Numbered from the stretch's first letter, positions 3,894 to 47,869 are shown. The stretch is DNA of 64,000 nt from a virus (IMGVR_UViG_3300027914_000334:32001-96000); one strand, 5' to 3'. A program made the numbers and translations. The notes: generated by a model from the letters alone, not told the origin.

Positions 3894-5039
3894 TCACGAA
3901 CCGGTAATTGTTAATACTCCTAACAAATCCCCTCTGACGCACTTCATACCGGCGCGGCTAAGGATAGCGCGTGTGGTAACGAAGGTATCAGGATTGGTGA
4001 AAGGATCGGAGAAGTAGGACAGGATGTAAGGTGCCCACACGTAGCAGGTATCCATCCAGTTAGAGGCGTTGTTGTAACCCATGAGAACCTTGTTGGCGGG
4101 GAAGAATGGGTCAACATAGATGCGCCAGCGGCTATTCAGGGTACCCATGAAGTAACGGCCACCGGTAGAAATGATCTTCTGTTCAACGGTAGCGGCATCA
4201 TCGGCGCGGAAACCAGCCATCTTCTCCATGAAACCAGCTACTTCGGCAGGAACCACGATCCAGTTGGTCTTGCGATAGGTCTTCTTGAAGATTTGCGTAT
4301 CGATATCGATAAGCTTCTCGTAGAAGGTTTCCATCCAAACCTTGCGGTCGGTATAGGTGATACCAGCAGGAACGCTCTGGTCGAAGGTAGCGGCACCACC
4401 GGTAGCTCCATCAAGCATGTCTTGAAGAACCATGCGATCCCACTCACGAACGATTTCAGCACCGAGAGCGAAGTTAAGATCGGAAGCAACGTTGATACCA
4501 TGATAAGCCATGATATCTTGATAGCTTTCGATTGTATTCGACGCCTTAAGCTTCTTCTCTACAGCGGTGAGTGAGCTATCGGTGATCTTCAGTACGATTT
4601 CTTTGATAGCCTTGGGAGAATTTGGGTTGTATTCCTCGTTATCAGCATAGGTGCGGCGGTTGTGGATGTCGGCACTTACGGAAGTGGCATCGTCGCGCTG
4701 AATGTCATAGTAGAAAATCTTGGTGGTAGGCTGACTCATCGGCTGAACGCTAACGAGTTCCTGCGAAATCATCGAAGGGAATACCTTGCGAATGAGAGGA
4801 AGTTGGGTCTTGACGAAGGTAGCCGCAGAAGCGTTGGTAGTCATAGCTTCCTTGATAGCTTCGTAAGAAGGCAGACCGGTCTTCAGACCGAAATCCTTGA
4901 TGGCGTTGTCGATGAGGACAGCCATCTTGTTTTGCTGAACTTTGGCGAGGTCTTCATTTTTGGTGTAGTGAGTAACACCTTCCATGAGATGACCAAAGGT
5001 CTTGAAAATCTGCTCATTGCGTTCGGTAAAGGTTTGCAT
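3894..5039 (-). CDS. major capsid protein (T4 gp23-like)
   Basis: LPLIRKVFP..ISQELVSVQPM.QPT, EI.RE.DR, YVWAPY, P.TF...RAI.SR; strong codon bias typical of highly expressed genes. Confidence 0.93.
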   Translation of the reverse strand: MQTFTERNEQIFKTFGHLMEGVTHYTKNEDLAKVQQNKMAVLIDNAIKDFGLKTGLPSYEAIKEAMTTNASAATFVKTQLPLIRKVFPSMISQELVSVQPMSQPTTKIFYYDIQRDDATSVSADIHNRRTYADNEEYNPNSPKAIKEIVLKITDSSLTAVEKKLKASNTIESYQDIMAYHGINVASDLNFALGAEIVREWDRMVLQDMLDGATGGAATFDQSVPAGITYTDRKVWMETFYEKLIDIDTQIFKKTYRKTNWIVVPAEVAGFMEKMAGFRADDAATVEQKIISTGGRYFMGTLNSRWRIYVDPFFPANKVLMGYNNASNWMDTCYVWAPYILSYFSDPFTNPDTFVTTRAILSRAGMKCVRGDLLGVLTITGS

Positions 5040-5069: not shown

Positions 5070-6275
5070 TTACAGAATTTTCTTGTAATCTTCAACTGAC
5101 AGAATCGCAAGACCTGCGCTCTTACGTTGATCGTTCATGAGTTTGAGATCGGCAAGTAACTTAGCATCCGTAACAACCTGAGCTTCGTTTTCGGTCTTAG
5201 GCTTCGCGGCGGCTTCGTCTGTAACCTTTTTGAACTCATCAAGGAATGTCTTATTTGCATCATATACCTTGCGAACTTCTTCGGCATTGATACAAGCTTC
5301 GAACTTAGCCATCAGAGAGTCGAATTTGGCAAACTCTGGATCGTTAGCTTTGATGGTTTCGATTTCCTTGTCCTTCGAAATCTTGACCTTCTCAGCTTCG
5401 ATAGCTGTGAGTTGTTCATTAGCAGATTCAAGAGCCTTCTTAGCTACATTAAGCTCATCAGTAAGCTTCTTAATTTCGGCATCCTTAGCGGAAATAATTT
5501 CCGACTCAGGAAGGGATACAAACATTTCGGGCTTAATAGCTTTGATGCTTTCAACAAGCTTCTCAAAGTTGGCAGAGATAGCTTCCGCTTTCTGCTTGAA
5601 AGATTCCACCATAACATTCGACTCGTTAAGCTTCGTTGTAAACGATGCTTCATACTCATCGAAAATCGAAGGGAATTCTTTCTTAAGTTCATCAAGAGAC
5701 TTAGGCATAGATTCTTCGCTCCTTTTACTTTCTAAAGTCATACCATTCTCGGTTTCGGAAACAGCGGGTGTATCTACAAAATCGATATTTTCAAGGACAT
5801 ATCCCTTTTGTATTACATCATGCTTCCCATCAACTCCGGGATATTCCTGATCGCATACTGAAGGGCCATAGCCACGGGTTGAAACGCCCACCATTGCACC
5901 GGCATCCAGTATTGCTTTCAAGTCTTTCCCGTAGGTTGTGTCAATAATTTGAGCCTTATAATAAGCAAAACCATCGTCCTGAATATCACTAACATCAAGC
6001 AGAACCGCACAAGTCTTTGATAAAGTACCACCATCTAACATACCGGGATGATCCATAGCCATCTTAATCTGGCGTTTCTGAACCTTCTCACGGAACTTAG
6101 AAATGGCTTCATTCATAACTTCCTTGGGATAAATACGGTTGTTGAGATTTGGGCGATCTGCCATAGTGAATGGGCCAGAAATAACATATTTCTTACCATT
6201 ACCAGATTCATCTACCATTTCTTCTAACTTTGTACTTCCAAAGTAGGTTTCGAGAATTCTGTTCTTCTTAGCCAT
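5070..6275 (-). CDS. prohead protease (gp21-like) fused to a coiled-coil scaffold
   Basis: N.NNRIYP, MDHP, GVSTRGYG, DFVDTPA; C-terminal acidic coiled coil. Confidence 0.9.
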   Translation of the reverse strand: MAKKNRILETYFGSTKLEEMVDESGNGKKYVISGPFTMADRPNLNNRIYPKEVMNEAISKFREKVQKRQIKMAMDHPGMLDGGTLSKTCAVLLDVSDIQDDGFAYYKAQIIDTTYGKDLKAILDAGAMVGVSTRGYGPSVCDQEYPGVDGKHDVIQKGYVLENIDFVDTPAVSETENGMTLESKRSEESMPKSLDELKKEFPSIFDEYEASFTTKLNESNVMVESFKQKAEAISANFEKLVESIKAIKPEMFVSLPESEIISAKDAEIKKLTDELNVAKKALESANEQLTAIEAEKVKISKDKEIETIKANDPEFAKFDSLMAKFEACINAEEVRKVYDANKTFLDEFKKVTDEAAAKPKTENEAQVVTDAKLLADLKLMNDQRKSAGLAILSVEDYKKIL

Positions 6276-31763: not shown

Positions 31764-32135
31764 ATGAACAAACCAAAAATAGGATATAAGGTTGTAGAGA
31801 TAAGAGATGGCAAATATTTTTCTTCGTCCACCAATTCAAGTGCCAAAAAGCGATACCATATTAATCGTTTTGTAAAAAGACGCCCCTATTTTGGGGCACT
31901 GTGTCTCTTTAAAAATCTAAAAGACGCAAGAAAATATTCTGAAATGTTCGTTCAACAGTTTGTTATATTTCAAGCAGAATATATTCCTAGTGAGGATAAA
32001 GCTCTATGGGATACACGATATTCTGAAAAATTAACCGCTGAATTGCTGGTTAGACGCTATCATTGTATGTCTACTTTTAAAAAGAGCAATATTCTTTTCG
32101 CAGAACAGATTAAACTATTAAAGGAAGTTAAATAA
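31764..32135 (+). CDS. 'KIGYKVV' family protein, copy 1
   Basis: KIGYKVV..SS..Y.IN..V.R...G.LCLFK...I.FAE.IKLL. Confidence 0.7.
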   Translation: MNKPKIGYKVVEIRDGKYFSSSTNSSAKKRYHINRFVKRRPYFGALCLFKNLKDARKYSEMFVQQFVIFQAEYIPSEDKALWDTRYSEKLTAELLVRRYHCMSTFKKSNILFAEQIKLLKEVK

Positions 32136-32203
32136 TGTATCGTTACTATGCATTATATTTCTGGCGTTGATGGCTCTTAGCAATTTACATTAAGGAGATA
32201 AAT

Positions 32204-32494
32204 ATGTCTGAAACTACAATGTCTTTGACGGAAATGACGGCTGATGGGATCGAGAAGTTTTATGCCTCCTATCTGGAAGTGAAGCATATTATTTCGATGC
32301 ATCGCCAATGGAGAAGGGCACGAAGCACGATGAACAGGTATCGCCGCCGCAAGGGAGAGGAACAAAGGCTTGTCGGGGATTTGCCGATGCTGAAGATTCA
32401 CATGCGCTGTAAACGTCTGTATAGCTTTGGCCTGAGAACCTACATCTTTGCAAAACGGACGATGCAAGAGAAAGGCGAGTGGGGCAAATCGTGA
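32204..32494 (+). CDS. basic hypothetical protein (paralog of 34280..34567)
   Basis: AAGGAG RBS; NRYRRR motif. Confidence 0.6.
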   Translation: MSETTMSLTEMTADGIEKFYASYLEVKHIISMHRQWRRARSTMNRYRRRKGEEQRLVGDLPMLKIHMRCKRLYSFGLRTYIFAKRTMQEKGEWGKS

Positions 32495-32880
32495 AACCAA
32501 AAATCGGATTTAAAGTCGTAGATGTTGTAAACGGAAAGCTCGTTTCGTCTTCGGAAACAGGCGTGAAGAGGAAGACCTATTACATAAATAAATACGTGAA
32601 GAGAAACAAGAAATACGGCCCTTTGTGTCTTTTTAAAACGTTATCAGCCGCAAGACAATACTATAAGAACATTAACAATCTAGGTGCAGGGTTGCGCTTT
32701 CGTATATATAAAGCAGAATATAAGGGTAGCAAAGATACAGTATTTATATATACTTCGGGTCGAAAGATAACATTGGAAGTCTTGGTAAACATTAATTCTA
32801 CAGGCTCGTTGCGGAACATTCCTATCGGAGATTTCCTTGTAGCAGAAAGCGTAAAACTTCTAAAGGAATATCCTAAGTGA
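32479..32880 (+). CDS. 'KIGYKVV' family protein, copy 2
   Basis: same motifs; start is probably the GTG at 32491. Confidence 0.7.
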   Translation: MGQIVKPKIGFKVVDVVNGKLVSSSETGVKRKTYYINKYVKRNKKYGPLCLFKTLSAARQYYKNINNLGAGLRFRIYKAEYKGSKDTVFIYTSGRKITLEVLVNINSTGSLRNIPIGDFLVAESVKLLKEYPK

Positions 32881-32901
32881 AGCTAAAATATCTAAAAGAG
32901 A

Positions 32902-33339
32902 ATGCAAAACATGAGCAAACATACAACATATAGAAGCGTTGATGAGACAAGGAGATTAAATTTTAATATGGATATTGGATATAAAGTTGTATGTCGTATA
33001 TCTGATAAATATATTTCATCTTCACAGTTGGGAAAAGCGAGAAAACGATATTTTGTAAATAGATTCGTTGAAAGATGCAAAAACTTCGGGCCGTTGTGTC
33101 TTTTTAAGACAAAAACAGCAGCAATAGCATATATTTCATATCTTGTTGATTCGGATGTATTTTGTGATTTTCGTGTATTCAAATCAGAATATATTCCTAG
33201 TAAGGATAAAGCTCTATGGGATGAATGTAATGTTAGATTAACATATGAAGATTTAACAAAACATTATCCTGTGATTGCTAGAATCAAAAAAGCCGATATT
33301 TTGTTTGCAGAAAAAATAAAACTCTTAAAGATATGTTGA
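32902..33339 (+). CDS. 'KIGYKVV' family protein, copy 3
   Basis: same motifs; shares EYIPS.DKALWD with copy 1. Confidence 0.7.
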   Translation: MQNMSKHTTYRSVDETRRLNFNMDIGYKVVCRISDKYISSSQLGKARKRYFVNRFVERCKNFGPLCLFKTKTAAIAYISYLVDSDVFCDFRVFKSEYIPSKDKALWDECNVRLTYEDLTKHYPVIARIKKADILFAEKIKLLKIC

Positions 33340-34567: not shown

Positions 34568-34694
34568 AAGATAATTTCGTTTTTAAAAACACAGATTTTC
34601 TATATATAGAAAGGTAAATACGTGGATATCGAGATAACTGTAAAGCACGAAAACAAAAGAGTTGCAATGCAGATGAGCAAGTACGAATACGACT

Positions 34695-34994: not shown

Positions 34995-35134
34995 TGAAAT
35001 TCGCATACAAAGTTGTGGATATAGACGAAGAAGGTAAGTTCGTATCCTCTTCGGAAACAGGAAACAGGCAGAAACGGTATTACAGAAATCCCCTTTTTAT
35101 AAACGTAGATTTTCTATATATAGAAATTAATTAG
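34994..35134 (+). pseudogene. truncated 'KIGYKVV' family copy
   Basis: MKFAYKVVDIDEEGKFVSSSETG..KRYY, then runs into the TTTCTATATATAGAAA palindrome and stops. Confidence 0.6.
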
Positions 35135-35383: not shown

Positions 35384-35422
35384 AAAAAAGAGGCTAGGTT
35401 TATTTCCCTAGCCTCTTTTTTT
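35384..35422. terminator. bidirectional intrinsic terminator
   Basis: AAAAAAGAGGCTAGG-loop-CCTAGCCTCTTTTTTT. Confidence 0.85.
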
Positions 35423-36812: not shown

Positions 36813-36829
36813 TTGGCACGGCGATTGCA
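36813..36829 (+). promoter_or_regulatory. sigma-54 (-24/-12) promoter
   Basis: TTGGCACGGCGATTGCA matches YTGGCACG-N4-TTGCW; hairpins start at the expected +1 (~36840), followed by an RBS and ATG 36918. Confidence 0.75.
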
Positions 36830-36917: not shown

Positions 36918-37115
36918 ATGATTGACTTGAACCGCTTGTCTCAGCTTCAAGAAATGGCGCGAGTTGTCCAGAACTCGCCCGAATACCAGCTCACGCGGAC
37001 GTTGAACCGTATGATCCGCATCGGTAAGGCGTCGACGGCCGACCATGTCGTTTTGGCTGACAAGGCCGAGACCGCCATGATGCCCGTGTACGAAAAGAAC
37101 GTCTCGAAAAACTAA
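36918..37115 (+). CDS. first gene of the putative early region, hypothetical
   Basis: AAGAGGTG RBS; GC-richer codon usage. Confidence 0.65.
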   Translation: MIDLNRLSQLQEMARVVQNSPEYQLTRTLNRMIRIGKASTADHVVLADKAETAMMPVYEKNVSKN

Positions 37116-37705: not shown

Positions 37706-37812
37706 AAAAAAAGGATTTTACCCTGCATAGAAATATGCAGGGGTATTCTTGTTTGAGGACGTTTTGACACGTTCCTCGAAATAAACCATTTCTATATAAA
37801 GAGGGATATATT

Positions 37813-37893
37813 ATGTCAATTATTATACCGATATCTTTATTTTGTGCTGGTTTCCTGTCAAGGGAACTATTGTTGCTTATCGACTACAAGTAA
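37813..37893 (+). CDS. 26-aa hydrophobic micro-ORF
   Basis: GAGG RBS; sits alone between two repeat elements. Confidence 0.45.
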   Translation: MSIIIPISLFCAGFLSRELLLLIDYK

Positions 37894-37991
37894 GTCAATG
37901 CCTTGCATTTACCTTTACAGGTAGTATGCAAGGCATTTCCTTGTTTGAGGGAAGCTAAATTCCCTTCAATATATTTCAAAGGAGAACTAAT

Positions 37992-38210
37992 ATGTTGAAT
38001 GAAAATCAGCTACGTAACATGGAAGGATTGAAGTTACAAGAAATCAAGTCTCCCCTTTCACGTCTCTCTCAGGGCAATCTTCCCGATCTCGTTCGGCTCA
38101 ACGGACGAGATTATGAGATGTTGTATCGCTCAGGCGATATAACAGTGTGGAATCTTCTGGGGAAGTTCAATTCCATCCCCACCAAGACCTTGCTCTTGAA
38201 AGTAGAGTAA
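37992..38210 (+). CDS. hypothetical protein
   Basis: AAAGGAG RBS after a repeat element. Confidence 0.65.
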   Translation: MLNENQLRNMEGLKLQEIKSPLSRLSQGNLPDLVRLNGRDYEMLYRSGDITVWNLLGKFNSIPTKTLLLKVE

Positions 38211-38458
38211 GGAAAGGATATGGAAATTGCAATCGTTTTGTTTATTCTATTCGGCATGAGATAAGATAACTCGATCCCCTGCATACTTGGAATATGCAGG
38301 GGATTTCCTTGTTTGAGGGAATTATTTTCTATATATAGAAAATCTAGGTTTTTGTTTACCTAGAAATTCTATGTATCCCTCATCCCAAGCCGATTTTCAT
38401 TTTCGGCTTGTCAAAAGAAATTCTAATTTGCCTATAATATATCAAAGGAGTTATATAT

Positions 38459-38617
38459 ATGGATGAAGTAAATGAAATTATCGAAAGATTGAAAAATTCG
38501 AATGAGGAGGAAGCTAAAGACTTCCTCCTTATCGACCTTTACGAGCGGTACGGCAAGGATAAATTCACGCCGTACCTCCTTCTGACCTCCGTGATAAGGA
38601 GGTTATTGAACAAATAA
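38459..38617 (+). CDS. 52-aa hypothetical protein (not in the ORF track)
   Basis: AAAGGAG RBS; MDEVNEIIERLK...; followed by a repeat element. Confidence 0.6.
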   Translation: MDEVNEIIERLKNSNEEEAKDFLLIDLYERYGKDKFTPYLLLTSVIRRLLNK

Positions 38618-38706
38618 AACTCTATCCCCTGCATAGAAATATGCAGGGGATTTCCTTGTTTGAGGGAAGTTAAATTCCATTCAATATATTTCAAAGGAGA
38701 TATATT

Positions 38707-38976
38707 ATGCATCCAAGTAATATTAAAACGATTGGCGCGGCAAGATGGATTTCGGATAATCTTGCCGAGTTCAAGGCCAAAAACGTCAACGATACAAAAA
38801 CGTTGACCGATGAAGAACAAGCCGCGTACGCAGAATTGGGCTGGCAACGTTCGAACGTTGTTGTCCTTGCCGACCATATCGAACGCCTCTACAAAGAGGC
38901 GCATATCATGGAAATGAAAATCCTGAAGTTACAAGCCATTATTGACCATCTCTCAGATAAGGAGATGGAAGCGTAA
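38707..38976 (+). CDS. hypothetical protein
   Basis: AAAGGAG RBS after a repeat element. Confidence 0.65.
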   Translation: MHPSNIKTIGAARWISDNLAEFKAKNVNDTKTLTDEEQAAYAELGWQRSNVVVLADHIERLYKEAHIMEMKILKLQAIIDHLSDKEMEA

Positions 38977-38984
38977 AATAATGC

Positions 38985-39013
38985 TTGACATGTCGTAGGG
39001 TGGTTATTATATT
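38985..39013 (+). promoter_or_regulatory. sigma70-type promoter
   Basis: TTGACA-N17-TATATT; shares AGGGTGGT and TATATTCATC with the 27288 promoter. Confidence 0.7.
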
Positions 39014-39135
39014 CATCCTATGACATGGGAAACAAAGAATAGCAAATCCCGGTCAGAAATGGCCGGGATTTTCTAGGTTGTAGGCAGTCAATTCGCTTGA
39101 ACAGCCTACAAAATATACCACTACAGGAGTCTTTT

Positions 39136-39702
39136 ATGAACACCAATTCGAATCAGGGAACCCTCGACCTCAACAACACGACCGAAACCCAGAACAACGT
39201 GACCGTCCTTCCTCCGGTTCTGGAACCGAAGAAGCGGGTACGGAAGCCTCTTTCCGAAGAGGAAAAAGCAGAGCGTGCAGCGGCTGAAAAGGCGAAGCGC
39301 AAGGAAATCAGACAGGAAGTCGTTAAGGAACTTCTGGCTTCCATGAACGAAGCCGAGCGTGCCGCCGCTACCGACGGATTCTCTGATGAATTCTTTTCGA
39401 TGCAGGAAAAGGTTGCGGAACTTGTCGATATTCGCTACAAGGCGTTCAAGAAATCCACCAAGGGAACGAAGAAACCGCGCAAGGCGTTCGACGTTCTCGA
39501 CTATCTGAAGCGCAAGATGTCCGAAATCGCCTTCGACCTCATGCATACGGAATTCAAGTCGAAGAAGACCGGCGAAGTTCGCAAACTGTCCTTCACCATC
39601 GACCAGTGGAAGGAAGCGGGTGAATTCGGATTCTTAAATCCGAAGCGTCGCGAAACCCGCGTTCGCAAGTCGAAGGCTGATAAAGTCGCAGAAACCAAGT
39701 AA
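39136..39702 (+). CDS. highly codon-biased, basic/charged hypothetical protein
   Basis: CAGGAG RBS; Lys/Arg/Glu-rich, possibly nucleic-acid binding. Confidence 0.7.
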   Translation: MNTNSNQGTLDLNNTTETQNNVTVLPPVLEPKKRVRKPLSEEEKAERAAAEKAKRKEIRQEVVKELLASMNEAERAAATDGFSDEFFSMQEKVAELVDIRYKAFKKSTKGTKKPRKAFDVLDYLKRKMSEIAFDLMHTEFKSKKTGEVRKLSFTIDQWKEAGEFGFLNPKRRETRVRKSKADKVAETK

Positions 39703-39796
39703 TCAGCTTACACAAGGAAATCCCGCCAGAAATGGCGGGATTTCCTTGTTTGAGGCAATATAAATTTTGCCTTAATTAAATCTAAGGAGAATTGTT

Positions 39797-40084
39797 ATGT
39801 TACACAATGACGACAATTATAAGTCCTTCCATATCACCAGTGTTCTGTTAAACAGAATTAACAAACGAGTTAATAGGTGCCGCTTAGATAAGCGGCTCAA
39901 TAACAATTCGTTTTTCAAAACCTACAATAAAGGTGCTGTGTGCTATCATTACCGCTCACAGCATAAACACTACGTTGTTATGCTGTTTAAGGGTGGAATG
40001 AAGCTTTACTCTACCAATGGAGTAAGCTTCTCCGGTACCTCTCTAGCTACACATTCTGTTATAGAGGGAGTCTTCGGAATATGA
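39797..40084 (+). CDS. hypothetical protein
   Basis: AAGGAG RBS after a repeat element. Confidence 0.6.
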   Translation: MLHNDDNYKSFHITSVLLNRINKRVNRCRLDKRLNNNSFFKTYNKGAVCYHYRSQHKHYVVMLFKGGMKLYSTNGVSFSGTSLATHSVIEGVFGI

Positions 40085-40296
40085 GATACTATGTTCAGTT
40101 CTTAGATGAAAACAAGAAAAGTATTTCTTTAGGTAACGACGGTTCATTTATAAAGGATTTCCCGCTCGTAAGAGCAAGGAAAACCATTGATATGTATATG
40201 AAATACAATCCTCTTAGAGATGAGATACACTACGCGGCTATTCACATATTCTCCTTCTCAGACAGCAAACCAATACTTACATTAAAACTTAAATAA
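40081..40296 (+). CDS. hypothetical protein
   Basis: ATGA overlap with the upstream ORF. Confidence 0.6.
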   Translation: MRYYVQFLDENKKSISLGNDGSFIKDFPLVRARKTIDMYMKYNPLRDEIHYAAIHIFSFSDSKPILTLKLK

Positions 40297-40382
40297 ACTC
40301 CACTACCCTGCATAGAAATATGCAGGGATTTCCTTGTTTGAGGGAAGTTAATTTCTCTCTACTTTAATCAAGGAGAAATACA

Positions 40383-40826
40383 ATGAAAACACATTTGTTG
40401 GATTTTGACGTACCAACAAGTAAGCCGATGCATAGCCTTTGCGGAAAGCCGTTTGTATGGCTTTCCAACGAAGGCAAGGCATCATGTCCAATCTGTAATC
40501 GTATTCGTGAGATACAGAAACGTTCAGAGCTTATCCAGAATGTTCTCAAGGAAGAGTGTTCTGGTAGCGGGATTGACTGTGAGTGGGAGTTTGAACAGAA
40601 GAAAGGAGTTCTTTACGCTAAGAATTCATTTCACACGATGAACGATGCCGGTTATTACGTTGGGTACGCAGACTTTACGTTGCGTATCGACGTTACAATA
40701 CCAGAAGAGTTTGTATTGACCTTTAACGGTCAGCGTTCTCATGTGTTAAATCGTCGTTATATGCTTAGGGAATATCTGGAAGATACCTTTGCATATGCTC
40801 TTACGAAACCGGCATTCAATATCTAA
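40383..40826 (+). CDS. conserved-looking phage hypothetical protein (SGSGID...SFH.M...GYY.G motif)
   Basis: AAGGAG RBS; motif recalled from phage hypotheticals. Confidence 0.65.
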   Translation: MKTHLLDFDVPTSKPMHSLCGKPFVWLSNEGKASCPICNRIREIQKRSELIQNVLKEECSGSGIDCEWEFEQKKGVLYAKNSFHTMNDAGYYVGYADFTLRIDVTIPEEFVLTFNGQRSHVLNRRYMLREYLEDTFAYALTKPAFNI

Positions 40827-40915
40827 CAACATATCCCTGCATAGAAATATGCAGGGATTTCCTTGTTTGTAGGCAATTATATTTGCCTACACAAACTACC
40901 AAGGAGGCTTACCAT

Positions 40916-41839
40916 ATGGTAAAGCGCAAGAACATTTTCACGGCTGTTGATGCTGAAGGTAATCCGATTGACCTAATCGGTTACACGATTGCGTGGACGG
41001 GAATGAAACGCGAATATAACATGATGGATGTCATTTCCGCGTTCAAAAACAACAATCTCCCTGTTAAGCATCTCGAAAAGGGGAAGGAACGAATTTCCTT
41101 CGTTCTTCGTGCTTTGAACAAGGCAAAGCAGGATATGCTTCTTCGTGAAGTGGAAAAGGGAGATACCACAATCCGCTACCAGTTCACAAAAGAGTACGTG
41201 GACACAATGCCCGATGGAACGCTTTACAAAGCTTTCCGTCCTGAAGAGTTCGTTGTGTATGACAAGGTGAATGACAGGTTACTTGCCGAAACTCCTGAAA
41301 AGGAAAAGTTTCTGCACGAACTTCTTCGGCATTGCTCCGAAACGTTCACGAATTCCGATGTAACTCGTTACATACAGGCGTTGTTTAACGAAGCGTCGAT
41401 GATCCCTCTTCGTGGAAGAGGATCGATGTACTTCGTTCCTGCTAAATACACTACGTTAGTCCATTCTGTAAAGTCGATGTTCGAAACCATCGATCCAGAT
41501 GGATGGTTCACCCTTATTGAAATGCCTGACCTCAAGTTCACGAAGGAAAGTGTTAAATCTTCCTTCGAAAACGATATGGCAAGCAAGCTTGCCGATCTCA
41601 AGGTGGAGATGGAAAAGCTTCAGGAGAAGGACGGTATTACTCCGAGAGTCTATCGTGCCAGAATGGAAGAGATTGGCAGGTGGGCTAAGGACTTGGAGAT
41701 GTATACTGAACTGACACAGTATACCTTGGAAGATGCGAAAGACGTTATCAAGGAAGCTTCCACACTTCTAACGACCTTCATGGAGAATGGTGAGCTTCCC
41801 GGTGATGCTCCTGCCGAAACTCCGACCGAAGAAGCCTAA
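40916..41839 (+). CDS. DUF3150/DUF6744-like protein
   Basis: IPLR.RG..YFVP followed by a coiled coil; precedes the AAA/VWA pair. Confidence 0.55.
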   Translation: MVKRKNIFTAVDAEGNPIDLIGYTIAWTGMKREYNMMDVISAFKNNNLPVKHLEKGKERISFVLRALNKAKQDMLLREVEKGDTTIRYQFTKEYVDTMPDGTLYKAFRPEEFVVYDKVNDRLLAETPEKEKFLHELLRHCSETFTNSDVTRYIQALFNEASMIPLRGRGSMYFVPAKYTTLVHSVKSMFETIDPDGWFTLIEMPDLKFTKESVKSSFENDMASKLADLKVEMEKLQEKDGITPRVYRARMEEIGRWAKDLEMYTELTQYTLEDAKDVIKEASTLLTTFMENGELPGDAPAETPTEEA

Positions 41840-41930
41840 TCGTTACATATCCCGGCGTAGAAATACGCCGGGATTTCCTTGTTTGAGGGAAGTTAATTTC
41901 TCTCATAAATTATCTAGGAGGTTTCCAATT

Positions 41931-43067
41931 ATGGAAATCAGAGAAAAGTTGTTGGCTCAAAACACATTGCTCGAAAAGTATATCTTCGAACGTGAAACAG
42001 AGATTGCCCTTATGAACCACATTCTTCTCACGAAGAATCACTCCTTCTATATCGGAGATCCAGGGTGCGCTAAGTCTCTGCTTGTTGATCTCAAGCAGAA
42101 GCTTATCACTGGAATCAAATATTTCTACAATAACTGCCATTCTTACATTAAGACTGGCGAAATCGTTGGGCCTGAAGATATCATGAAACTTAAGCAAGGT
42201 GTTATGGAATTCATTCTTGATAATCACCTTGTAATGTCTCATGTTGCGTTCTTGGATGAAGTTTTCAAGGCACATAAACAGTTGTCTTGCTTATTGCCTG
42301 TTATCAATGAGCGCATATTCTCTCAGAACGGCAACATAGTAAAGTCTCCACTCATGTCTTGCTTCATGGCAAGTAATGAGCTTCCCGGTGATAAGGAACT
42401 ATCTGCTTTTTACAATAGAATCCTGTTTAAGTTCTTCGTTGGTAGCGTAAGTGAATTTGAGACTCAGATTAACCTTCTGTATCTCGATGAGTTGCCTGAG
42501 TTTCCTACCAATCCTTCTTGTGCTATCACAATCGATGAATTGAAACAGGCACAGGCCGATGTTGCTAAGGTAACGATTCCGCGTGAAACAGCGGAAATGA
42601 TCGTTATGCTTGCTAATATCGCAAGAAATGAATTTGTTAAGGTTAGTGATAGACAGATTCGTTGGCTTGCGAAGCCTGTTAAGGCAGAAGCATGGCTTAA
42701 CGGTCGTACTGAGGCAATGCCAGAGGATTGCGAAGTCCTTAAACATTGTCTCTGGAATGATCCGCACAAGGAGCGTGATATCGTATTCTCTCAGGTGAAT
42801 AAAATGTGTAACCAACAGCTTGACGATATCCTTACGAAGCTCGATACCGTTATCGGGCCGAAAGGTATCCTTGCTGATTGGCGTGCGGCTGGACCACAAG
42901 CTAACCATAAGGAAACAGCGGAACAGATTCGTTTAATTAAGAACGAACTGGAAAGCATGAAGCCGTCCGAAAAGAACAAGTCGGAGTACAATCGCGTGTA
43001 TAAGCGCATTTGCGCTGAACATAAGGCTATTCTCCCGTTTGCGGTTAAGCAGATTCAGAACCGCTAA
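41931..43067 (+). CDS. MoxR/RavA-family AAA+ ATPase
   Basis: FERE, GDPGCAKS, FLDEVFKA, INER, ASNELP, VSDR, CLW. Confidence 0.9.
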   Translation: MEIREKLLAQNTLLEKYIFERETEIALMNHILLTKNHSFYIGDPGCAKSLLVDLKQKLITGIKYFYNNCHSYIKTGEIVGPEDIMKLKQGVMEFILDNHLVMSHVAFLDEVFKAHKQLSCLLPVINERIFSQNGNIVKSPLMSCFMASNELPGDKELSAFYNRILFKFFVGSVSEFETQINLLYLDELPEFPTNPSCAITIDELKQAQADVAKVTIPRETAEMIVMLANIARNEFVKVSDRQIRWLAKPVKAEAWLNGRTEAMPEDCEVLKHCLWNDPHKERDIVFSQVNKMCNQQLDDILTKLDTVIGPKGILADWRAAGPQANHKETAEQIRLIKNELESMKPSEKNKSEYNRVYKRICAEHKAILPFAVKQIQNR

Positions 43068-43158
43068 CATACAATCCCCTGCATAGAAATATGCAGGGGA
43101 TTTCCTTGTTTGAGGGAAGTTTATTTCTCTCTAGTAAATTCATAAAGGAGATTGTTAT

Positions 43159-44487
43159 ATGCGTAGTTTTCTAATCAATCGGTTTAGTGATTACATGTAT
43201 AGCAAGAATTCAAAGGCTGATAAAGATTTGAATAACTTGTTATATCAAAATCACTGGAACAGTAACTTCGAAGATAACATGAAAGACCTGTTTTCGGCTT
43301 ATTACAAGAAGGATATGAAGTATAGTGATAAGCCAGATCCTCTATTCAAGGGATTCTTCGATGCCGTTAAGGAAACAAGAGAGTTTGTTGATATGACGGC
43401 TAAAACGAAGGGTAATCCTGTTCTCTCCTACTATGCTACAAAGCGCATGTCGGAAGAGATGAGTAAAGCGATAGCAGGGATGTTCTCAGAACTGAAAGAG
43501 AAATCCAAAGATTTCAACGATCATCCAGATAAGGTCAAAGAGGATGCGTTGAAAGACGCTATCGAAAAGCAAAAGGATTCCATTCGTGCCGCTATGCGCC
43601 ATGCTACGAAGGAAGTAGCAGAGGACGTAGAAAAGGTAGAAGATATAATCTCTACCTGTGGTATCGGAGACGAGAATGGACAGCCTCGTTCTATTGATGA
43701 TTTGCAAAGCATCATCGAACTTGCTAACGATATTCTCAAGAATCCATTATTTAAAGAGATTATCGATATGGCTGGTAGAATCCAGCGTAAAGCCAACTCT
43801 GTTCTTCTAAGTCTATGCAAAGGACAGGGTGAACCCGTTGGCATTGAATTTGGTAAGGAGATTGATAAACTCCTTGCCAGTGAATATGCTATGATGGGTG
43901 ATCCTGATCTTGATACGTTGTTCTGGAAGAATTACGTATCGGAGAACCTTTACCAGTGGGAAGAACGTGGAGAAGAACCACAAGATAAAGGCCCGGTTAT
44001 CGTAGCAATCGATCAATCTGGGTCTATGGATGGATACAAGCGTAAGTATTCTTGTTCCTTCCTGTTTGGTATCTATATGGTATGTAAGAAGTCAAATCGT
44101 CCTCTCTACGTTATCGCCTTCGACGTAAGAACAAAGACTTACAAAATCGAAAGCGAAACGGAAATCTTCAAGGTAATGAAGGAGTTTCTTGGTGGTGGTA
44201 CGTCGTTTGACGCTCCCCTACTGGAAACCATCAATATCTTGAAGAATGAGAAGGAAATGGAGAAAGCCGATCTAATCTTCATCACCGATGGGGAAGCTTA
44301 TATCAAGCAGGAAGTTCTTGATGAGCTTATGGCATACAAGAAGGAAATATCCTTCAATATCATCGGTGCTATGATAGGCTATTCTTACATGGATGTTCTT
44401 GGTAAGTTTGCAGACAAGACATTCAAGATCGATAGCCTTACAGGAACGGAAAGCGTTAAGTTCCTAGAGGAAGCGTTTAGCATCTAA
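43159..44487 (+). CDS. ViaA-like VWA-domain protein
   Basis: KGP.IVAIDQSGSM (MIDAS), GGTSF, ADLIFITDG. Confidence 0.9.
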   Translation: MRSFLINRFSDYMYSKNSKADKDLNNLLYQNHWNSNFEDNMKDLFSAYYKKDMKYSDKPDPLFKGFFDAVKETREFVDMTAKTKGNPVLSYYATKRMSEEMSKAIAGMFSELKEKSKDFNDHPDKVKEDALKDAIEKQKDSIRAAMRHATKEVAEDVEKVEDIISTCGIGDENGQPRSIDDLQSIIELANDILKNPLFKEIIDMAGRIQRKANSVLLSLCKGQGEPVGIEFGKEIDKLLASEYAMMGDPDLDTLFWKNYVSENLYQWEERGEEPQDKGPVIVAIDQSGSMDGYKRKYSCSFLFGIYMVCKKSNRPLYVIAFDVRTKTYKIESETEIFKVMKEFLGGGTSFDAPLLETINILKNEKEMEKADLIFITDGEAYIKQEVLDELMAYKKEISFNIIGAMIGYSYMDVLGKFADKTFKIDSLTGTESVKFLEEAFSI

Positions 44488-44603
44488 TACACGATCCCGG
44501 TGTAGAAATACTCCGGGATTTCCTAGTTTGAGGAAGCTTTAATTCCTTGCTGTAACAGAACTGGTTTACAGTTCTGAAATGAATTAAAGGAGATTTAAAC
44601 TCT

Positions 44604-44942
44604 ATGGAAACCTATTCCGAACAGGATTACAGAGATGTAATCCTAGCACAGCAACAAACGATTGATATGATGTCAAAAAAGCTTGAATTACTTAACAAGG
44701 TAGACAATCGTAAGATCAATCACAATGCCAATTCGATCTCTGAAGCCCTTAACATTACAAAAGAAGGGATTGAAGAACTAGAGGTTATGATTAGACTCTG
44801 GTTCTATAAACAACTTTCTCAATCTGAAATGATCGAAAAGATTGAGAAATCCCCTCTCCCATTACGTGAAAAGCTTCTGGCTTGTCACTTGATCGGACAA
44901 GCATTTGCGGAGTTCATCCTTACAACCGGAGGCAAGAAATAA
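44604..44942 (+). CDS. hypothetical protein
   Basis: RBS after a repeat element. Confidence 0.6.
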   Translation: METYSEQDYRDVILAQQQTIDMMSKKLELLNKVDNRKINHNANSISEALNITKEGIEELEVMIRLWFYKQLSQSEMIEKIEKSPLPLREKLLACHLIGQAFAEFILTTGGKK

Positions 44943-45514
44943 TGTATTCAAATATTGCTAACCTTAAAATTAGTATTCGTAACATTAACGTGGAATATCT
45001 CAACGGGAGCAAGTTCGAATTTATTGCAGATGAAGACCTTAAGTTCCCGAAGGAGAAAGAGTACAGTGTTACAGGTACTCTTAACGGAGTCGCGGGGCAA
45101 TTGGAAATTAAGCATTGTAATCTTGTCCTTACTGCTATGCCAAGGTACGCGGCTTCGTTCTACTTTCCATCTGAAGTAATCTATAACGTTAACAAGTTCA
45201 TTAAGAGGGGCAAGGAGTTCGATTTAAACTACTGTAAGCATCTTCGTAATACATTCTCAAAGTTACACTTTGTAGAAGTGTGCCTAAATAACAAGACGTT
45301 CGACGATGAAACAGTAAATATGAAAATAGAAAAGCTTCGAAATCTTACTATGATGTATTCAACTGGCGTATATACACGTCCAACGCTCGTATATTATGTA
45401 AGGTCTGAAAAGCCAGTGGAAATCCTCTACAGTATTGTTAAAGAAGGCAAGATTGTAGAACATAACGAAATCCAAGGGTATTCTCTTGCGGGGGTGCCTA
45501 TGTATGGATCATAA
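44942..45514 (+). CDS. hypothetical protein
   Basis: TAATG coupling with the upstream ORF. Confidence 0.6.
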   Translation: MYSNIANLKISIRNINVEYLNGSKFEFIADEDLKFPKEKEYSVTGTLNGVAGQLEIKHCNLVLTAMPRYAASFYFPSEVIYNVNKFIKRGKEFDLNYCKHLRNTFSKLHFVEVCLNNKTFDDETVNMKIEKLRNLTMMYSTGVYTRPTLVYYVRSEKPVEILYSIVKEGKIVEHNEIQGYSLAGVPMYGS

Positions 45515-45689
45515 TATCGTCGTAGGTCTTGCTAATGCAATAATCCAGATAGTTATGGTTCTGTTGTATGGTGCGTTATGTATTGGATTCCTAGCAGCTA
45601 CTATCCAGATATTATGTGCAATAGCTCCGATGATATTCCTTGGAGCGTTTGTAACTGGAATCGTTACTGCTATCATAAGAGGTAGCTGA
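45486..45689 (+). CDS. small membrane protein
   Basis: almost entirely hydrophobic. Confidence 0.6.
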   Translation: MRGCLCMDHNIVVGLANAIIQIVMVLLYGALCIGFLAATIQILCAIAPMIFLGAFVTGIVTAIIRGS

Positions 45690-45725
45690 TTACAAATCCC
45701 GGTGTAGAAATACACCGGGATTTCC

Positions 45726-45953
45726 TTGTTTGAGGGAAGTTTTATTTCCAATCTAATTCAATTTGGAGGTTATATGATCTATATAACGATCAAGCCACAC
45801 AAGAACAATCACTACATGCCTAGTACAAAAGAAGATTTTATAAAGCTTGATGAGTTAGGTTTATTTCCGTTTATCAATAAGGAATCGGTACCGTATATCG
45901 AAAATCTCAAAGGTATCAAATTCATAATCGAAGGAGAAAATAACAATGGCTGA
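45726..45953 (+). CDS. hypothetical protein
   Basis: true start is probably the ATG after GGAGG (~45774). Confidence 0.55.
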   Translation: MFEGSFISNLIQFGGYMIYITIKPHKNNHYMPSTKEDFIKLDELGLFPFINKESVPYIENLKGIKFIIEGENNNG

Positions 45954-46353
45954 TATTACTATTTGCGCTAATAACAAATGTCCTATCAAGGAACGATGCT
46001 ACAGATACACGGCAAAATGCTCGCCCTATCAATCATATAGCTATTTCGAATCATATGAGAAAGACGGTCGAGTAGCTTGCGATTACTATATGGGCAAGTA
46101 TGTCAATATTCGGATGCCAGATGGTGCTACTTTAAAAATAACATTTGATGAAAACAATGTTGTAAAGCTTGAAAGCACCTTGAAGGTCGATCCGAAAACC
46201 GATAATGATGGAACGTATCACGAATTCAATGCCGCTATTGATGGTATGGAAGCCCTTATCATTTCAATGATACACAACGGAATTGATATCGAAAAGCGAG
46301 AGATTTTAAACGCAATCATACGCGCTTATTCTGAAATTTCAGTTAGGTTTTAA
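45946..46353 (+). CDS. 'MADIT.C' Cys-rich domain protein
   Basis: DITIC...CP....CYRY; paralog of 47588..47779. Confidence 0.65.
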   Translation: MADITICANNKCPIKERCYRYTAKCSPYQSYSYFESYEKDGRVACDYYMGKYVNIRMPDGATLKITFDENNVVKLESTLKVDPKTDNDGTYHEFNAAIDGMEALIISMIHNGIDIEKREILNAIIRAYSEISVRF

Positions 46354-46363
46354 GGAGGATAAT

Positions 46364-46564
46364 ATGAAAAGGCTCATTCTTCGTAACTCATTCCATAACA
46401 CGAAAATCACAATTCTTGCGGAAGAAGGAATCAGTCCTTATGCCGCATATCAGGACATTGCTTGTCTTGCATATTCCGGAGACAAGGCTGCAAAAAGGAA
46501 ACTCCAAAAAATCAATAGGGTGCTTTGCGGAATGTCTGACTGTAAGTGTGGAATCATAAGATAA
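46364..46564 (+). CDS. hypothetical protein
   Basis: AAGGAGG RBS; LCG..DC.CG at the C-terminus. Confidence 0.6.
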   Translation: MKRLILRNSFHNTKITILAEEGISPYAAYQDIACLAYSGDKAAKRKLQKINRVLCGMSDCKCGIIR

Positions 46565-46651
46565 ATATAAATCCCACGTAGAAATACGTGGGATTTTCCT
46601 ATTTATGAAGGAAGTTAAATTCCTATCTAAATAATCCAAAGGAGAACGTTT

Positions 46652-47783: not shown

Positions 47784-47816
47784 AAAAAAGGACTACCGAA
47801 AGGTAGTCCTTTTTTT
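47784..47816. terminator. bidirectional terminator at the convergence point
   Basis: AAAAAAGGACTACC-GAAA-GGTAGTCCTTTTTTT. Confidence 0.9.
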
Positions 47817-47869
47817 GTGTCCGTATAACGTGAATTTTTACTAAGATGAACACCTAATAGGCGGCGGCC

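Follow-up and report, generated by a model that had tools for sequence, protein, structure and literature searches.

The closest described counterparts of the elements reported here are the PeSLs (promoter-early stem-loops), known from the T4-type phages RB49/phi1, T4/PST and KVP40/nt-1 (Arbiol et al. 2010, PMC2839356; Comeau et al. 2014, PMC4122927). Like PeSLs, the present elements belong to a member of the T4 superfamily, occupy the complete interval between a stop codon and the ATG that follows, share one orientation and separate small genes of unknown function (PMC2839356, PMC4122927). They also begin with a GC-rich stem-loop and close with a Shine-Dalgarno sequence (SD); their copies are grouped in one plastic part of the genome, and they contain the endpoints of insertions, deletions, replacements and displacements, with crossovers at several internal points. 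The sigma-70 early promoter (−35, N17, −10) that defines a PeSL is, however, missing; a U/C-rich linker of 13-16 nt and a further RNA hairpin, which likewise covaries, take its place. PeSLs are also marked by excised mini-circles and by measured terminator and promoter activity.

Phage intergenic gaps hold other short, oriented motifs in many copies beside stop or start codons, such as the start-associated sequences (SAS/ESAS) of cluster K mycobacteriophages and the stoperators of cluster A. The present elements resemble these in being short, oriented, repeated and intergenic, but share with them neither sequence nor host group nor architecture; stoperators serve as DNA sites for a repressor and lack covarying hairpins.

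Results

The window analysed comprises 64,000 nucleotides (IMGVR_UViG_3300027914_000334:32001-96000) of a 106,693-bp viral record that is 86% complete. Its source is an uncultured T4-like phage; the record encodes rIIA and NrdD, and a capsid protein with less than 30% identity to T4-superfamily capsids. A covariance model trained on eight copies and run over the whole record returned 13 copies of the double-hairpin element, the number given in a first-pass annotation of this DNA, all on the plus strand and all within some 9 kb of the window (37719-46628), with no further plus-strand copies in the record outside this interval. Weak minus-strand matches of the model correspond to the palindromic hairpin 1 alone. 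The linker 14-mer GATTTCCTTGTTTG occurs eight times exactly and twice with one mismatch (plus strand, 37934-45732), and at up to two mismatches it has 15 matches in the window against a shuffle mean of 0.85, 15 being reached in none of 100 shuffles; the earlier description of the linker as near-invariant does not hold for E01, E05 and E13, in which it has diverged, and the "early" label given to the genes is an assumption of that annotation. In the Rfam search that the annotation had proposed, run over the whole record, tRNAs alone reached the gathering score, and the sub-threshold matches in the array are scattered and unrelated. This strongly covarying RNA motif, about 58 nt long and present in 13 copies, is absent from Rfam.

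Each element takes up all of the intergenic space between a stop codon and the following ATG, and the small genes that the copies separate lie in a plastic part of the genome. Hairpin 1 (H1) begins 5-19 nt after the stop codon (median 8-9), E05 being the exception, which agrees with the earlier statement that copies nearly always lie just past a stop; its stem is 9-13 bp long in most copies and about 17 bp in E02 and E06, has a near-invariant CCC/GGG clamp and is 98.9% paired. A recount of the H1 loops again gave GAAA in 11 of the 13 copies, the others being the long nested loop of E02 and CUUGGAA in E03. There follows the U/C-rich linker of 13-16 nt, which always starts G-AUUU, and then hairpin 2 (H2), with a stem of 5-9 bp; in the predicted folds of all copies the linker is unpaired or weakly paired between two stable helices. 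Within one genome the linker is more uniform than the H1 stem, and H2 is present after it every time. An AAGGAG-type SD lies 5-9 nt 5′ of the ATG in nearly all copies, SD and start codon closing the 3′ end of the element.

Covariation was assessed in an alignment that joined copies of this phage with those of three relatives, 21 distinct ones in total. Paired cells amount to 92.6%, and 13 of the 16 pairs of the two helices change on both sides, values that were reached in none of 500 shuffles; when partner columns were slid, 29-60% of cells were paired, against 92.6% in the true register. The proposed covariation of H1 is accordingly borne out, and that of H2 holds insofar as both helices covary beyond the controls, although E03 has a degenerate H2 and E12 a weak one. 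G-U and U-G cells number 26 as against five A-C and C-A cells, an excess which, as had been argued from the use of G-U pairs, indicates that the element acts as coding-strand RNA.

The individual copies, all on the plus strand, vary around this plan. E01 (37719-37776), with the H1 CCCUGCAUA-GAAA-UAUGCAGGG, the diverged linker GUAUUCUUGUUUG and the H2 GAGGACG/CGUUCCUC, is matched by the model at 47.5 bits and folds; it lies 5′ of a gene for a 26-aa membrane peptide. In E02 (37898-37968) a long H1 (GCCUUGCAU...AUGCAAGGC) contains a nested hairpin and is followed by a linker with one mismatch and the H2 GGGAA/UUCCC, and E03 (38275-38335) combines a 7-nt H1 loop and an exact linker with a degenerate H2, after which comes the palindrome TTTTCTATATATAGAAAA. 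E04 (38625-38683) is canonical, with a 10-bp H1, a GAAA loop, an exact linker and one bulge in H2. E05 (39046-39109), which lies in a 5′ leader 3′ of a promoter (38985-39013), has the linker AUUUUCUAGGUUG and a long H2 (GUAGGCAG...CAGCCUAC). The H1 of E06 (39720-39775), CCCGCC/GGCGGG, is extended to 17 bp by a 5′ flank that complements the linker, and its H2 is GAGGCAA/UUGCCUU. E07 (40304-40361; model match 83 bits) is canonical, with one G-U pair in its H2 GAGGGAA/UUCUCUC; the same H2 recurs in E09 (41849-41906; 85 bits) behind the H1 CCCGGCGUA/UACGCCGGG and an exact linker, and between these two E08 (40833-40891), also matched by the model, joins a canonical H1 and linker to the H2 GUAGGCAA/UUGCCUAC. 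E10 (43075-43133), canonical and matched by the model, lies 3′ of a MoxR-type ATPase gene. A U-U mismatch in H1, one mismatch in the linker, the H2 AGGAA/UUCCU and an additional third hairpin 5′ of the SD characterise E11 (44494-44551); E12 (45696-45753) has the H1 CCCGGUGUA/UACACCGGG, an exact linker and a weak H2; and E13 (46570-46628) has the H1 CCCACGUA/UACGUGGG and the linker AUUUUCCUAUUUAUG, the dominant linker type of the relative L004.

The comparison set consisted of short metagenomic contigs, including L004, L127 and L129, and the same element, with variant linkers, is found in four metagenomic relatives. Orthologous copies there preserve pairing via compensatory changes: a stem-base pair of E02 is swapped from G-C to C-G (L004 5324), GGC/GCC of E08 has become GAC/GUC (L004 8909), and the ortholog of E05 (L004 5879) keeps promoter and structure with a changed H2 sequence. 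It is precisely at the elements that related phages differ through gene exchange, loss and reordering. Insertions, deletions, replacements and reorderings of cassettes between this phage and its relatives end inside them, similarity breaking off past H1, in the stretch from H2 to the SD, or at the SD itself; this upholds the earlier suggestion of blocks of homology by which genes are shuffled as cassettes, and gives the element-bounded gene gain and loss for which a comparison of relatives had been advised. Cassettes of 52, 89 and 147 aa of this phage were not found on the L004 contig, and a 73+75-aa cassette of L004 and L127 is missing from this phage; the order DUF6744, ATPase, VWA seen here contrasts with ATPase, DUF6744 in a relative, and the ATPase gene has four differing neighbour pairs across four phages. 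E10, L004 8909 and L129 1454 have the ATPase 3′ end and H1 in common and diverge from the linker on, E07 is near-identical to L127 229-287 as far as the SD, and E13 and L004 7068-7141 share 84% identity over 77 nt, although the gene behind the L004 copy is a different one.

The left border of the array is a canonical plus-strand terminator (A-tract, 15-bp stem, U7; 35384-35421) that ends the preceding operon, and at its right end stands a canonical two-way terminator (A6, GAAA-loop stem, U7; 47784-47817). At the array head a plus-strand sigma-54-type −24/−12 motif, TGGCAC-N5-TTGCA (36813-36829), was read from the sequence, and a similar motif is present at L004 4265-4280. The sole strong consensus promoter within the array is the sigma-70-type TTGACA-17-TATATT just 5′ of E05 (38985-39013, plus strand); E05 lies about 26 nt 3′ of its predicted start, consistent with the earlier placing of a copy at 39044 behind a sigma70 promoter, and L004 keeps TTGACA at the same spacing upstream of its E05 ortholog. 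The upstream promoters of the array number two or three in all. A sigma-70 promoter scan found none within any of the elements, just as the annotation had said in setting them apart from PeSLs, and a hand check of each copy gave no pair of hexamers spaced by 16-19 nt from which a transcript would still include the SD. The T4 late motif shows no enrichment; the 86% complete record holds no gene for MotA, AsiA, RegA or RegB and none for a tyrosine or serine recombinase.

H1 resembles intrinsic terminators and intercistronic stabilising hairpins in that it is GC-clamped, has a stable tetraloop, lies a few nt past the stop codon and has a U-rich tract behind it. Its free energy ranges from −11.5 to −21.6 kcal/mol, and H1 plus tail of ten copies pass a simple terminator-like scan. 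On an unrelated metagenome contig the identical H1 sequence, with U6 after it, stands behind a gene in the manner of an ordinary terminator, and a second unrelated contig has the same H1 sequence with a shorter U-rich tail. Unlike intrinsic terminators, however, the elements have a U-rich tail broken by CC (5 U in 8), conserve the tail sequence and add a second hairpin every time, and whereas the array-bounding terminators have uninterrupted U7 tails, those of H1 are weaker, with 4-5 U in the first eight bases. Since the two C in the tail AUUUCCUU would strengthen the RNA-DNA hybrid, H1 may not terminate at all. The placement of E05 argues for a weak H1, as a strong terminator there would render the promoter in front of it futile. 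Linker uniformity and the constant, covarying H2 are unexplained by a plain terminator, and a further RNA-level role of linker and H2 is likely.

Discussion

On balance we lean, if only somewhat, towards regarding the 13 elements as promoter-less, PeSL-like cassette junctions that work as coding-strand RNA. Each element would be co-transcribed with its flanking genes and would comprise three parts: H1, about 8 nt past the stop codon and with its CC-interrupted U tract, would have the shape of a weak intrinsic terminator or of a hairpin protecting a 3′ end; the U/C-rich linker would be a single-stranded spacer separating the hairpins; and H2, with an AU-rich spacer and the strong AAGGAG SD, would form the leader of the next gene. 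Because the elements hold no promoter and two or three lie upstream, expression of the cassettes would have to come by read-through; the missing PeSL-type promoter likewise suggests that the cassettes are not self-expressed and that the stem-loop is not a strong terminator. Termination, stabilisation and read-through at the elements are what the sequence leads us to expect, H1 acting as a leaky attenuator or stabiliser that would punctuate and insulate a long transcript rather than bring it to a full stop. The common blocks, i.e. the H1 clamp with the linker start, and the SD, would serve as short homology patches for the exchange, loss and reordering of cassettes.

The first-pass annotation had also entertained processing or stabilising sites, by analogy with the T7 early region, and leaky terminators or SD-sequestering switches under one phage factor. 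Like the T7 RNase III sites, the elements are repeated structured intergenic sites along one long phage transcript, but an RNase III site requires about two helical turns of double-stranded RNA, and here the stems are mostly short (H1 9-13 bp, ~17 only in E02 and E06; H2 5-9 bp) and the conserved part is single-stranded; the T7-type site thus fails on length and an RNase III role is unlikely, whilst processing or stabilisation as such is possible. In one version, which we rate as a credible minority reading, a host single-strand RNase of the RNase E/G or RNase Y type would cut the U-rich linker, H1 being the 3′ barrier of the upstream mRNA and H2 lying near the downstream 5′ end, so that separately stable messages arise with no termination at H1. 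RNase E is reported to prefer AU-rich single-stranded RNA, a preference that the linker start G-AUUU suits, and by the predicted folds the linker of every copy is free, or only weakly paired, between its two stable stems. The C-broken H1 tail is poorly suited to termination, the position of E05 within a 5′ leader suits processing or stability better than a terminator, and there is a T4 precedent in that host RNase E processes messages upstream of genes (PMC3014915); the linker sequence nevertheless drifts between orthologs (E05 versus L004 5879). RNA processing and leaky termination can coexist. More doubtful is a switch in which UUUCCUU of the linker pairs with the downstream AAGGAGA around H2 and keeps the cassettes silent until a shared factor, cleavage or a temperature shift intervenes. 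The pairing noticed in the first pass is indeed predicted: in many copies the minimum-energy fold includes a helix of linker and SD that encloses H2, the pairing probability is above 0.75 in 11 of 20, where it beats at least 92% of shuffled linkers, and in E01 linker and SD flank have both changed with pairing still possible. It is almost nil in six of the 20, however, SD occlusion in the array is not significantly higher than at 97 other genes of the genome (Mann-Whitney p = 0.064), and pyrimidine-rich tracts pair with any purine-rich SD, so that complementarity by itself argues little; nor does the record hold a RegA- or RegB-like factor. The annotation's second reading, a leaky terminator or an SD-masking switch, stays plausible: H1 plus tail pass the terminator scan, if with a tail weaker than those of the bounding U7 terminators, and a phage factor to control it was not found. 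A more ambitious proposal, to which we give no more than a modest chance, is a novel type of cis-acting regulatory RNA for operon "punctuation", the anti-SD-like linker being terminator tail, nuclease target and RBS mask at once, termination or cleavage being coupled to unmasking of the next cassette, and all 13 copies answering one host or phage factor.

It is improbable that the elements are PmSL-like middle promoters acting at the DNA level for a phage-modified polymerase, with the linker as activator box near −30 and the AT-rich loop of H2 as −10. By hand, a TAnnnT hexamer can be read in 13 of 22 copies, 10-13 nt past a box with the sequence TTTCCTTGT or TTTCCTATT, but such hexamers are frequent by chance in AT-rich loops, and the two L004 copies that carry a perfect TTTGCTTTA, the T4 MotA-box consensus, both lack a −10 element at the correct spacing. 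Mot-box PmSLs in phage nt-1 provide a precedent (PMC4122927), although the record is without MotA and AsiA, E05 is already preceded by its own sigma-70 promoter, and a start 7 nt past that −10 would fall in or just after H2 and leave the H2 covariation and G-U excess unexplained; a T4 middle promoter or PmSL was rejected on these grounds. Still less probable is a nut-like antitermination site, the GAAA hairpin corresponding roughly to boxB and the linker to boxA, that would load an N-like phage protein and host Nus factors onto the polymerase and so carry it through the array. One site per transcript suffices for processive antitermination, as against thirteen here, and the unrelated loops of E02, E03 and three L004 copies imply that the loop is not read sequence-specifically; the succession of a GNRA-loop hairpin and a conserved linear sequence, the place of E05 shortly after a promoter, in nut-site fashion, and a very basic 188-aa protein encoded behind E05 would fit, although that protein has no recognisable family or fold. 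An integron-like system, whose hairpins would be attC-like sites for a dedicated recombinase, we regard as the most far-fetched, even though promoter-less cassettes in a single orientation, separated by hairpin repeats and with promoters upstream at the head, recall one. The 86% complete record has no tyrosine or serine recombinase, the hairpins are perfect and show neither extrahelical bases nor a GTTRRRY core, and the breakpoints fall at several differing places in the element, as expected for homologous exchange; an attC array was accordingly rejected.

At some 58 nt, the motif with its 13 copies is of a size that permits direct tests of how a phage sets expression levels relative to one another within one long transcript. 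Its practical value is modest: it marks where cassettes begin and end in the genomes of uncultured phages, and it is a candidate for use as a natural insulator. Among T4-type phages, PeSLs are the textbook case of a regulatory motif that is a recombination linker as well, and a promoter is part of their definition; that modular shuffling of the same kind takes place at promoter-less, structured-RNA junctions indicates that such genome plasticity does not require transcriptional autonomy of each cassette.

The double-hairpin element and its RNA structure

A covariance model trained on eight copies and run over the whole record recovered 13 copies (E01-E13) of the double-hairpin element between gene cassettes, all on the + strand and none outside window positions 37719-46628, in agreement with the 13 copies in approximately 9 kb proposed by the first-pass annotation. 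The element lies just after a stop codon, as had also been noted, at a distance of 5-19 nt (median 8-9), and comprises, in order, hairpin 1 (H1; 9-13 bp, its CCC/GGG clamp invariant and its loop GAAA in the claimed 11 of 13 copies), the U/C-rich linker AUUUCCUUGUUUG, hairpin 2 (H2; 5-9 bp, loop of 5-8 nt, AU-rich), an AU-rich spacer of 8-20 nt, and a Shine-Dalgarno site (SD) of AAGGAG type followed by ATG. The 14-mer linker is exact in eight copies and carries one mismatch in two, and matches to it with two or fewer mismatches number 15 in the window versus a shuffle mean of 0.85; its description as near-invariant holds for these copies but does not extend to E13, which carries a linker of the type found in the related metagenomic contig L004. 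E11 has a third hairpin, CAGAACUG...CAGUUCUG, between H2 and SD (window 44530-44603) that is absent from the other copies.

Both hairpins had been said to covary and to use G-U pairs, and both points are borne out. An alignment fitted to the covariance model, and hence biased toward pairing, was made from 21 distinct copies belonging to this phage and to three relatives; in it, paired cells amount to 92.6%, with changes on both sides at 13 of 16 pairs; the observed covariation values were reached by none of 500 shuffles, and slid controls were 29-60% paired. The stems are also evident in single-sequence folds, which are independent of the alignment (z-scores -4.7 to -8.1). G-U and U-G cells number 26, versus five A-C and C-A cells, an excess that argues for coding-strand RNA and against a DNA cruciform or antisense RNA. 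Neither the window nor the remainder of the record, run against Rfam with gathering thresholds and again with loose ones, yielded anything but tRNAs, and no family matches the element.

Genomic setting of the array

The source record, of which the window covers bases 32001-96000, is an IMG/VR viral sequence of 106,693 bp with an estimated completeness of 86%. The phage belongs, as a distant relation, to the T4 superfamily. It encodes rIIA, NrdD, DNA ligase, RNA ligase and tRNAs, and its major capsid protein, best matched by that of a Flavobacterium phage, is less than 30% identical to T4-like capsids; DNA-level comparison found no similar cultured phage, and the ATPase of the array is less than 33% identical to any cultured-phage protein. 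The array occupies 37.7-46.6 kb on the + strand, with cassettes of one to four genes, mostly of unknown function, and one element copy per inter-cassette gap. Its recognisable products are a DUF6744 protein, a MoxR-type AAA ATPase and a VWA protein, the genes of which co-travel (window 40916-44487), as they do in the more distant contigs L007 (1986-6642) and L008 (286-4359), where the ATPase is 46% identical and the gene order is DUF6744-ATPase-...-VWA. In both contigs the ATPase gene is preceded by a lone GC hairpin that lacks a U-tract, and the double element is absent; because the three genes stay together even in such distant element-free relatives, they look like a conserved MoxR-VWA system. 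Two hydrophobic mini-ORFs of 26 and 14 aa (window 37813-37893 and 38220-38264) recur in L004 (5237-5320 and 5771-5815) and, being kept in both phages, are probably real membrane-peptide genes. Upstream, in a small-gene array without elements, lies a family of paralogs of approximately 125 aa with 39-45% mutual identity (window 31776-33330; L004 1648-2025). The basic 188-aa protein encoded behind E05, a candidate RNA-binding factor, gave neither a family nor a fold match.

Only two consensus promoters are found nearby, one of sigma-54 type at 36813 and one of sigma-70 type at 38985, both kept in L004, and a promoter scan of the elements agrees with the earlier claim that none has a built-in sigma-70 promoter. 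The former is a -24/-12 motif, TGGCAC-N5-TTGCA (window 36813-36829), at the array head; it precedes the gene at 36918 by approximately 90 nt. L004 has a similar motif, TGGTAC-N5-TTGCG (4265-4280), approximately 60 nt upstream of its first array gene. E05 starts within approximately 26 nt downstream of the sigma-70-type promoter, the -10 region of which is spanned by an 11-bp inverted repeat (window 38989-39027) that recurs in L004 (approximately 5818-5852) with altered yet pairing arms, i.e. with covariation. In both phages an ATG lies 6-7 nt past this -10 (window 39020), and a leaderless mini-ORF from it would run through H1 here and end 10 nt before H1 in L004. The palindrome TTCTATATATAGAA occurs exactly three times between genes near the array start (window 34598-34611, 35112-35125 and 38327-38340), versus 1.08 expected with two or fewer mismatches, and also in L004 intergenic regions (2409-2610 and 5155-5583), each time within a longer conserved stretch, AGATTTTCTATATATAGAAA; possible roles are those of an operator or an atypical promoter.

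Cassette exchange among related phages

The same element is present in four related phages. Relatives were reached through ATPase homologs in metagenomic contigs, the ATPase being 79% identical to that of this phage in L004 (with L005), 80% in L129 (with L128 and L130) and 63% in L127. Their linkers differ (AUUUUCCUAUUUAUG, AUUUUCUUGGUUG, UUUUUGCUUUAUAUG), and their H2 is quite unlike in sequence (e.g. GUAAGC/GCUUAC, GUAGAC/GUCUAC). Among viral contigs, an exact 18-mer search gave two chance matches, within genes, and a degenerate pattern, which was too loose, gave 118 single chance matches. A metagenome scan with the H1 21-mer hit one relative that was already known and, in addition, two terminator-like sites that are unrelated; the latter, exact 21-nt matches on the minus strand of unrelated contigs (L134 3880-3900, followed by U6; L135 2461-2481, followed by UUUAUUCUU), probably represent a convergent palindromic GAAA hairpin rather than homology.

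The earlier suggestion that the elements are homology blocks for cassette shuffling, to be checked by gene gain or loss bounded by elements in related genomes, is supported by just such differences in gene content and order, with breaks that fall inside elements. With slashes marking elements, the order is 188 aa / 95+71 aa / 147 aa / DUF6744 / ATPase / VWA in this phage, 180 aa / 73+75 aa / 95+81 aa / ATPase / DUF6744 in L004, 72 aa / 72+75 aa / ATPase in L127 and 81 aa / ATPase / novel gene in L129. Two further cassettes of this phage, of 52 aa and 89 aa between E03 and E05, were not found on the L004 contig, where H1 has been lost from the E01 position; the left flanks of these two phages have 91% DNA identity and their common array genes 70-83%. 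Junction alignments place one break directly after H1, where E10, L004 8909 and L129 1454 have the ATPase 3' end and H1 in common and diverge in linker, H2 and downstream gene, and another between the H2 spacer and SD (E07 versus L127 229); a further break lies at the SD, the 17-nt spacer and SD of E09 reappearing in L004 before another gene. Tyrosine and serine recombinase genes are absent from the record (86% complete), which, together with the several crossover points, points to homologous exchange that uses short conserved patches. Such exchange has been shown for promoter-early stem-loops (PeSLs; PMC2839356), the cassette junctions of T4-type phages and the closest known system. The element has five PeSL features, and in genome evolution it acts as a PeSL does; however, the defining promoter of PeSLs was tested for and is absent, as anticipated in the first-pass annotation, so it is not strictly a PeSL.

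Possible function of the element

Whilst the structure of the element and the shuffling of cassettes are well established, how it works is inferred. The array borders (35384 and 47784) carry canonical terminators with U7 tails, unlike the AUUUCCUU that follows H1; H1 and this tail nevertheless have the shape of a terminator, and in an unrelated contig the same H1 sequence, followed by U6, looks like an ordinary terminator. As there are only two promoters nearby, nine to 13 cassettes would depend on read-through, and H1 is accordingly taken to be a leaky attenuator that also protects 3' ends. A plain terminator model falls short, however, because the linker is more uniform than H1 within one genome and differs between genomes, a pattern pointing to frequent conversion among the copies or else to a partner that recognises a specific sequence. 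The main rival reading, that a single-strand-specific RNase cuts the exposed linker, may coexist with leaky termination; RNase III-type processing, as in the T7 early region, is improbable given the short stems. Masking of the SD by linker-SD pairing around H2 is unproven: the predicted pairing probability exceeds 0.75 in 11 of 20 copies, where it beats most shuffled linkers, but pairing is absent in six copies, and SD occlusion in the array is not significantly higher than elsewhere in the genome (p = 0.064).

A Mot-type middle promoter was also considered, the linker and H2 loop being loosely similar to one and two L004 copies containing TTTGCTTTA, and was rejected because MotA and AsiA (like RegB and RegA) are absent from the record, the two TTTGCTTTA copies have no -10 element, and transcription starting there would offer no explanation for the covariation of H2. 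The T4 late promoter TATAAATA is not enriched. No hammerhead is present, and a scan for duplexes, covering the record in full on both strands, found no trans RNA or ribozyme that could pair with the linker; it matched only the antisense of the elements themselves and, inside coding regions, a few stretches of 10-11 nt.

Leaky attenuation with 3'-end protection by H1 is, as far as can be judged from sequence, most likely combined with a role of H2 and the SD as a leader for the gene that follows. As a whole, the element would then form an insulating junction, and cassettes that have no promoter themselves could be moved.
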